Positions 4,468 to 4,835 of a DNA stretch of 64,000 nt are shown one piece after another. This DNA is from a virus (taxonomy: Duplodnaviria; Heunggongvirae; Uroviricota; Caudoviricetes), in the IMG/VR virus record IMGVR_UViG_637000107_000010, one strand, 5' to 3'. Every line of letters begins with the position of its first letter. The stretch's first letter is position 1. Below the pieces are notes generated by a model that worked only from the letters and a program-made list of their open reading frames with translations, was not told the origin of the DNA and searched no databases. The position numbers were made by a program, and so were the translations under genes.

Positions 4468-4835
4468 TGTTTTTGGTTTTAACTGTTCCGCGTGCGCTTA
4501 GCCGCATTCACTGCATCACAAAATTCACTTTAAAAAGGGCGGACATCAGTTCATGGGCAAACAGATGCCGCCAAACGTCACCAGAAAATTGATAACAGAG
4601 GGCGTTGCAGCGGGGTTGTCACTTAAGCGTATGGTCAACCTGACAACCCGGTGTCCTCAACGGGGAAGGAATAACCCCGCCATACTTACCGCTGCGCCAT
4701 TTCGCGTTATGCTCTGACTTTTCAGAGAAATATCCTTTCAGTAAACTGTCAGTGCCGGATGTTCACCCGTGTCCGGCGCACGCACTCCACTTCACCCGTG
4801 GAGAACTCCTTAATTACCAACCCTCAGGAGGGTGA

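Follow-up and report, generated by a model that had tools for sequence, protein, structure and literature searches.

Two prophages in the 64,000-nucleotide stretch of viral DNA analyzed here (the window) have in common about 530 bp at 92 to 94% identity. Copy A designates the block in the first prophage (P1 in an earlier note on this DNA) and copy B that in the second (its P2); hereafter, P1 always means the phage of that name. Over this region, E. coli strain CDC#03-98 matches the window with 100% identity. The shared block corresponds to the intergenic region between ydfC and dicB in a dicBF operon of the Qin type, on the minus strand, and it aligns colinearly with K-12 Qin between the end of ydfC and dicB. 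The locus comprises the following features.

4174..4362, minus strand: dicB of copy A, 62 aa (Pfam PF05358, 127.4 bits; RefSeq calls dicB in an identical record)
4363..4531, minus strand: dicF-dicB spacer of copy A, within the 94% block, with a weak resemblance to STnc100
4532..4587, minus strand: DicF variant sRNA, copy A (Rfam RF00039 at 4586-4537, 43.5 bits, E 3.7e-8)
4601..4710, minus strand: structured leader of pre-DicF, copy A (leader covariance model R1, 137 bits)
4613..4649, minus strand: 9-bp hairpin of the earlier note, which is helix H2 of the leader, with a 19-nt invariant loop (inverted repeat 100% complementary)
4700..4706, minus strand: CGCGAAA deletion junction, copy A (alignment with K-12 Qin and copy B)
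4707..4782, minus strand: upstream conserved non-coding segment, copy A, with two small hairpins (91.6% versus 31981-32063; also conserved in K-12, where its counterpart is ydfC 3'-UTR-like)
31370..31558, minus strand: dicB of copy B (Pfam PF05358, 125.5 bits; C-terminal half diverged)
31728..31785, minus strand: canonical DicF sRNA, copy B (Rfam RF00039 at 31784-31733, 75 bits, E 1e-14)
31799..31908, minus strand: structured leader, copy B (leader covariance model R1, 137.3 bits)
31910..31993, minus strand: long irregular hairpin, copy B (RNAfold -35 to -38 kcal/mol with any base at N 31967; present in K-12, absent from copy A)

Comparing the first 27 kb of the window with the remainder by blastn matched positions 4258 to 4706 of copy A to 31454 to 31904 of copy B at 94.0% and, colinearly with this match, 4700 to 4782 to 31981 to 32063 at 91.6%. 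The conservation described in the earlier note (4495 to 4830, about 90% identity) was thus found again, but the limits of the block differ: its left end is at 4258, inside dicB, and its right end is near 4782. It hence extends 237 bp to the left of 4495, across the dicF-dicB spacer and into the first ~105 nt of dicB. The right-hand flanks of the two copies are unrelated by blastn. The claim that the flanking genes have diverged nevertheless holds only partly, as DicB is recognizable in both copies (Pfam, 127 and 125 bits) and upstream ORFs of 135 aa and 216 aa have a homologous N terminus when their translations are compared by eye. Similarly, the block is non-coding with regard to protein but is not anonymous DNA, since Rfam places a dicF sRNA gene inside it. 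The suggestion of a small RNA or regulatory site was borne out, the block holding DicF and the functional strand being the minus strand, and the proposed comparison with known EHEC prophage sRNAs was positive, DicF being present in several copies in EHEC (PMC5069750, PMC7873438, PMC10448788). The core of the finding, a dicF sRNA locus, is already known, and multicopy dicF in EHEC prophages has been published (PMC5069750; PMC7873438).

The block was matched in 4423 of 5426 complete E. coli genomes, at up to 9 places per genome, and is 92 to 100% identical across thousands of them. RefSeq leaves the region without annotation in nearly all genome records listed.

The dicBF operon and its processing

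In both copies, dicB is an ORF of 62 aa directly downstream of dicF on the same strand; a DUF1482/YdfD-like ORF and a large exonuclease gene come next. Upstream, copy A harbors a DicA-like repressor gene and a Cro-like gene, and copy B an S24-type repressor gene; a promoter-like site is found upstream with the DicA-like repressor. The arrangement resembles that of K-12 Qin DicF (RF00039) in its position upstream of dicB on the minus strand and in its 5' seed, terminator, and U tract, and copy B additionally has the leader, the long hairpin with the putative RNase III site, and the spacer. Unlike in K-12, extra genes are present between ydfC/ydfA and the leader in both window copies, including a small convergent plus-strand ORF between the upstream operon genes and the leader (4836-5069 and 32111-32332). 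These two ORFs (77 and 73 aa) are unrelated, have no Pfam match, and are without an equivalent at this place in K-12; they look like inserted morons. Their orientation raises the question of how transcription reaches dicF. With an opposite-strand ORF in this place, it can only be assumed that transcripts from the pL-like promoter read through to the leader.

DicF has been described as an expressed, RNase E-processed, Hfq-bound, trans-acting RNA in K-12 and EHEC (PMC10448788, PMC5069750, PMC7873438). In K-12, it has no promoter of its own and is cut from the polycistronic dicBp transcript, RNase III being needed for a 190-nt species and RNase E for a 53-nt species (PMC10448788; PMC9438474). Transcription partly ends at the DicF terminator, giving a ydfABC-dicF transcript, and partly continues into dicB (PMC10448788). 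By analogy with these K-12 data, transcription would start at a pL-like promoter under repressor control, located downstream of the gene for the DicA-like or CI-like repressor, and cross a few small ORFs before entering the non-coding block. Part of the polymerase would stop at the intrinsic terminator that forms the DicF 3' end, and the remainder would enter dicB. RNase E would cut the A/U-rich linker between AUCAA and UUUUCUGG to release an Hfq-dependent sRNA of ~53 nt, and RNase III would cut a long hairpin ~137 nt further upstream, yielding the 190-nt precursor. All parts of this processing scheme are present in copy B.

The 190-nt species is RNase III dependent (PMC10448788), and in K-12, counting back 190 nt from the DicF 3' end leads to the 3' strand of the homologous stem AAGCGCAUGG/CCGUGCGCUU. 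From this product length, we infer that the RNase III site lies in the long hairpin, where cleavage would create the 5' end of the 190-nt pre-DicF. One of the 93 ambiguous bases (N) of the window, at 31967, is located within this hairpin of copy B.

The hairpin holding the putative RNase III site is retained in copy B and missing from copy A. In the alignment, copy B has a segment of 83 nt that is absent from copy A. The segment is flanked in copy B by a 7-nt direct repeat (TTTCGCG on the plus strand, at 31898-31904 and 31981-31987), and it is carried by K-12 Qin and another E. coli strain. Because of the latter, the difference, which the earlier note had taken for an insertion of ~80 bp in the second prophage, has to be read as a deletion in the first one: judging from these alignments, the 83-nt segment is ancestral and copy A lost it between the CGCGAAA repeats. 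The 44-mer spanning the copy A junction was found in 374 E. coli genomes, among them O157:H7 strains and derivatives of 86-24; in 108 of the genomes, the identity was ≥99%.

The dicF-dicB spacers scored 32.2 and 34.7 bits against STnc100 (RF02076), below the gathering score of 47. These subthreshold matches (4343-4548 and 31526-31735, minus strand) surround a conserved hairpin, CACCUGGAGGCACCAGGCAC. In other phages, this spacer module is found behind different sRNA cassettes, and it reappears in the phage P1 ban operon upstream of tciA.

Overall, it is probable that both copies represent the dicF locus of a Qin-type dicBF operon, with the leader as the folded body of the precursor and copy A in an altered form.

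The variant DicF of copy A

DicF is a well-established prophage sRNA; it inhibits cell division and, in EHEC, activates the type III secretion regulator PchA. Its presence explains the conserved block, and no new biology is needed for this. Copy B DicF differs from K-12 DicF at a single base and scored above the RF00039 gathering score of 48 bits (75 bits), whereas copy A scored below it (43.5 bits). In copy A, the first 20 nt of DicF, including the intact 5' seed UUUCUGGUGACGUUUGGCGG, and the terminator base GGCGG/CCGCC are unchanged, and the 27 nt between them differ. Both copies have the same single-stranded 5' seed, UUUCUGGUGACGUUUGG, and downstream of it a Rho-independent terminator, the stem-loop of which is rewritten in copy A (CAUCUGUUUGCCCAUGAACUGAUGU) before the U tract. 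RNAfold gave the terminator hairpin a free energy of -17.3 kcal/mol in copy A and of -15.4 kcal/mol in copy B, with a U5 tract after each.

DicF uses its 3' region to pair with ftsZ and pykA and its 5' end to pair with xylR (PMC5069750). Copy A is devoid of the ftsZ-complementary CUCC...GCC stretch. For the duplex with the ftsZ translation-initiation region, we predicted -38.5 kcal/mol for canonical DicF and -28.7 kcal/mol for copy A, compared to a mean of -32 kcal/mol for shuffled sequences. Copy B and K-12 DicF form an extended predicted duplex from -29 to +25 of ftsZ; the duplex predicted for copy A is weaker than the shuffled mean and no longer spans the Shine-Dalgarno sequence. Since the 3' stem-loop of copy A is replaced and its 5' seed kept, pairing with ftsZ is predicted to be lost, and seed pairing of the xylR type would still be possible.

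The 50-mer of copy A is present in identical form in 290 of 5426 E. coli genomes, those listed being mostly STEC, and the allele also occurs in E. albertii. The copy B 52-mer had matches of at least 90% identity in 3820 of the 5426 genomes. EHEC strains harbor up to four dicF copies, and DicF activates pchA (PMC7873438). The copy A allele, carried by this genome and about 290 others, mostly Shiga toxigenic, has kept the seed and lost both the ftsZ-pairing part and the hairpin with the putative RNase III site; therefore, the several dicF copies of EHEC are probably not functionally equivalent. As far as we have checked, an allele with a conserved seed, a replaced ftsZ-pairing part, and a deletion of the hairpin thought to be cut by RNase III is modestly new.

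Fold and distribution of the leader

The earlier note had drawn attention to a hairpin with a 9-bp stem. Its inverted repeat, GGGTTGTCA/TGACAACCC, is perfect in both copies (4613-4621/4641-4649 and 31811-31819/31839-31847) and encloses a 19-nt loop; by our own estimate, a sequence of 336 nt should contain about 0.05 perfect hairpins of 9 bp by chance. In distant homologs, compensatory changes maintain the stem, which reads GCGGACA/UGUCCGC and GCGGCCA/UGGCCGU in Pantoea and Enterobacter. The hairpin is not itself the small RNA, however: it lies outside DicF, in a leader of ~90 nt just 5' of it. In copy A, the leader has the following elements, all on the minus strand.

4688-4691/4649-4652: helix S, CGGU/ACCG
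4675-4679/4661-4665: hairpin H1, CGGGG/CCCCG
4641-4648/4614-4621: hairpin H2, the hairpin of the earlier note
4680-4685 with 4629-4634: pseudoknot, GUAUGG of the internal-loop strand with CCAUAC of the invariant H2 loop

Helices S, H1, and H2 are nested and are backed by RNAalifold and pair counts. The pseudoknot strands vary as follows.

E. coli prophages (window copies, K-12): GUAUGG/CCAUAC, the reference
Phage P1: GCAUGG/CCAUGC, fully paired
Pantoea eucalypti/agglomerans: AUCUGG/CCAGAU, fully paired
Enterobacter: GACUGG/CCAGAC, one A.A mismatch
A viral contig (L224): GUGUGG/CCAUAC, one G.U wobble

We analyzed covariation in 27 distinct sequences that were aligned to a model without the pseudoknot. 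In this set, 94.8% of the leader cells were paired, versus 34 to 47% when the partners were slid. Double-sided changes occurred in 12 of 23 leader pairs, compared to 6.7 ± 1.5 in shuffles, and none of 500 shuffles reached the observed value. Compensation was seen in every leader helix, including the pseudoknot, where 3 of 6 pairs covary; the nested helices rest on the model-fitted alignment, and the pseudoknot lies outside that model. The sequence comparison thus supports, by covariation, a leader made of three helices and a loop pseudoknot, and the covariance analysis across relatives that had been proposed along with the hairpin turned out positive. Conservation is higher in the unpaired leader nucleotides and the H2 loop than in the stems, and the leader as a whole exceeds DicF in this respect. 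Homologs differ by 1-nt indels in the H1 loop, which therefore exclude a conserved reading frame. Counts of G.U versus A.C in the leader (24 versus 23) did not discriminate between the strands. A further closing helix, GCAGCGG/CCGCUGC, obtained by single-sequence folding, was rejected: it showed no compensatory changes, and one of its columns was broken in 17 of 66 sequences.

A search with the 111 nt immediately 5' of DicF (4596-4706) gave matches in 60 phage records. The carriers include the lambdoid phages mEp460, cdtI, the Stx2c phages, 2H10, Salmonella F1055, and one deposited as an Actinobacillus phage, as well as P1, P7, and SJ46. A search for loop variants retrieved four further contigs, from P1-like phage-plasmids of Pantoea and Enterobacter. 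Overall, the leader is present in lambdoid phages and P1-like phage-plasmids of Escherichia, Salmonella, Klebsiella, Pantoea, and Enterobacter. Such longer, loop-based patterns succeeded where scans with GC-rich 14-mers for pseudoknot variants had failed, the latter being dominated by chance matches (real loci, 1/240). Likewise, when one genome per species was scanned for the DicF seed, matches outside Escherichia and Shigella were mostly due to chance. No family in Rfam 15 matched the leader at E ≤ 10 for the window copies, at E ≤ 0.05 for eight other loci, or at E ≤ 0.01 for three more. As far as we have checked, a covariation-supported, pseudoknotted leader that is shared well beyond Qin-type prophages and absent from Rfam is modestly new.

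Behind the leader, the sRNA cassette of ~60 nt varies: it can be canonical DicF, the copy A allele, an Stx2c type, a P1 type, or one of several others. All eight cassette types examined, from lambdoid phages and phage P1, end in a terminator 23 to 41 nt after the leader. In Pantoea, the leader follows the operator/promoter by ~40 to 50 nt and a tRNA is directly downstream. The "dicF-like region" of phages P1 and P7, the leader of the ban operon after Pban, contains a homologous ~90-nt leader (76 to 81% identity) with the same helices and pseudoknot and an intrinsic terminator next to it. It differs in that no DicF seed follows in P1, tRNA genes and ban are downstream instead of dicB, and the leader is ~37 nt from the transcription start, whereas the window leaders are inside the operon.

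Several relatives showed peculiarities of their own. In the phage deposited as Actinobacillus phage vB_Apl-pPE4 (2590-2770), a non-DicF cassette ending GGCGGGUAUCC...GAUACCCGCCCUUUUU is tandemly duplicated, the operon runs into kil and not dicB, and the neighboring genes are E. coli-lambdoid-like. Two viral contigs (L136, 763-1359; L101, 4732-5332) harbor a dense array of regulatory RNAs on one strand, in the order leader, DicF-like sRNA (38 to 39 bits), STnc100-like spacer, isrK (60 to 64 bits), and C4 antisense RNA (77 to 80 bits). A third (L421, 1163-1265) has an RprA-like sequence ~170 nt downstream of a leader that is identical in sequence to that of the Enterobacter plasmids pJBIWA008_2 and p60214CZ_1; it scored 63 bits, the gathering score being 70. 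Its 3' part and terminator are presumably close to chromosomal RprA, which suggests a phage-borne RprA mimic. Finally, in an Stx2c phage (L050, 2171-2660), the cI terminator is followed by a near-consensus promoter (TTGACA-16-CATAAT), ~290 nt of untranslated sequence, the leader, a strong terminator, and the first early gene. No N-like gene is visible between this promoter and the first early gene, so early-left expression seems to need read-through of the post-leader terminator.

Possible roles of the leader and further RNAs

The reading that we prefer, suggested by its position, is that the leader may serve as a processing scaffold. It would form the body of the 190-nt precursor as a compact, pseudoknotted 5' fold of ~90 nt, left at or near the RNA 5' end by RNase III or, in P1-like elements, by the nearby promoter. 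There, it could protect the precursor and keep the single-stranded RNase E site both insulated and correctly placed, thereby allowing the release of a defined small RNA (a tRNA in P1-like elements) downstream. The precedent known to us for such a role is the reported stem-loop-directed processing of MicL (cited in PMC9438474). The arrangement is similar to that of the RNase E-released 3'-UTR or intraoperonic sRNAs CpxQ, SroC, and MicL, which are terminator-proximal pieces of a longer transcript released downstream of a structured RNA (PMC9438474). However, the upstream structured part is here more conserved than the sRNA, is common to loci with differing cassettes, and carries a covarying pseudoknot. 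Also, the unpaired nucleotides of the leader (the 19-nt loop and GCGCGGCGG) are more strongly conserved than a passive structural barrier would require.

The leader could instead be a cis-acting transcription-control RNA, either a put-like, polymerase-binding antiterminator or a riboswitch-like aptamer, that sets the balance between a stop at the terminator, giving the sRNA, and read-through toward the early lytic genes, which are dicB/kil/exo in lambdoid phages and the tRNAs and ban in P1. We regard this as rather unlikely, but it accounts for several observations. The leader is ~37 nt past the Pban start in P1, ~40 to 50 nt past the operator/promoter in the Pantoea phage-plasmids, and ~290 nt past a strong pL-like promoter in Stx2c phages, where no N-like gene intervenes; these operons lack an N gene, and the copy A operon has no N-like ORF either. 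Moreover, in each of the eight cassette types, transcription has to pass an intrinsic terminator 23 to 41 nt beyond the leader, and a compact pseudoknot with unpaired nucleotides and a loop that outconserve the stems is typical of partner-binding RNAs. HK022 putL and putR are likewise two-hairpin structured RNAs upstream of terminators in the early operons of an N-less lambdoid phage, and they share the 9-mer GCGCGGCGG with the leader. However, the leader covariance model found no match at E ≤ 10 in the HK022 immunity region, which holds both putL and putR. Put sites are present at pL and pR, whereas the leader occurs only once per prophage, both in the window, where the model detected none in the pR operons, and in the phage loci examined, and its pseudoknot has no counterpart in the part of the put description available to us. 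Further arguments against such control are the distance of ~0.8 to 1.5 kb between promoter and leader in Qin-type operons, the fact that the K-12 DicF terminator does terminate to give the ydfABC-dicF transcript (PMC10448788), the tRNA in place of a terminator after the leader in Pantoea, and the lack of any terminator-competing pairing that, by our own inspection, is kept between copies A and B. With the same low probability, the leader would constitute an independent, uncatalogued class of temperate-phage cis-regulatory RNA that heads repressor-controlled early operons and, being put-like or binding a ligand or partner, decides between a stop that yields an exchangeable sRNA cassette, e.g., DicF, and read-through into division-inhibitor and recombination/replication genes.

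Three further explanations are less likely still. Lambdoid prophages are mosaics, and 92 to 100% identity in thousands of E. coli genomes next to unrelated right flanks could reflect recent recombination or a DNA-level module junction, with no RNA function beyond DicF. This is quite improbable, as all four helices are kept by compensatory changes in the P1/P7 homologs at 74 to 80% identity and in the Pantoea and Enterobacter homologs (31 to 48 bits versus ~137 for the window copies), and the sRNA cassette is exchanged behind the leader while the leader stays. Slightly less probable still is an action from the plus strand, as an antisense RNA or as promoter or 5' region of the ORFs at 4836-5069 and 32111-32332. 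The plus strand does fold equally well (z = -2.8), the G.U versus A.C counts favor neither strand, and the plus-strand ORFs begin ~50 nt past the conserved block. But the minus strand is marked as the relevant one by DicF with its U-tract terminator and by dicB; in K-12, the leader is part of the 190-nt precursor on that strand (PMC10448788); no promoter-like site is found on the plus strand within 4600-4830; and the two ORFs are unrelated, without Pfam matches, and missing from the K-12 block. Least credible of all is a small protein encoded by the block, such as the 54-aa plus-strand ORF 4553-4717. ORFs are present on both strands, and several phage records annotate a hypothetical CDS or "hypothetical protein" over the block. 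Against this, single-nucleotide indels (CCCC versus CCCCC) and length-variable loops shift every frame among close homologs, the variation tracks base pairing and not codon periodicity, and RefSeq has no annotation over the region in most genomes listed.

Two more specific candidates were rejected. An antiterminator pairing of CUGUUAUC with the 5' strand of the terminator is possible in copy B but lost in copy A, by our own inspection. A self-cleaving ribozyme is unlikely, as in K-12 the 190-nt species, which builds up upon inactivation of RNase E, still has the leader intact (PMC10448788).

Whichever small RNAs or tRNAs follow it, the same pseudoknotted domain is common to phage P1 and to the Pantoea and Enterobacter phage-plasmids. 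If the leader controls processing or read-through, it would represent a general temperate-phage device for balancing small RNA output against early lytic genes.

Other structured RNAs were found elsewhere in the window. Both late regions contain STnc100 on the plus strand (16737-17006 and 44488-44742; 175 and 146 bits), adjoining an opposite-strand AgvB anti-GcvB sRNA (56.6 and 96.5 bits), and both RNAs are located just after a tRNA pair. Each prophage also has a sok antitoxin RNA of the hok/sok type (11618-11767 and 38995-39169; 104 to 110 bits). Two ALIL frameshift pseudoknots (22406-22522 and 47203-47319; 121.5 bits) mark near-identical copies of IS3-family insertion sequences.
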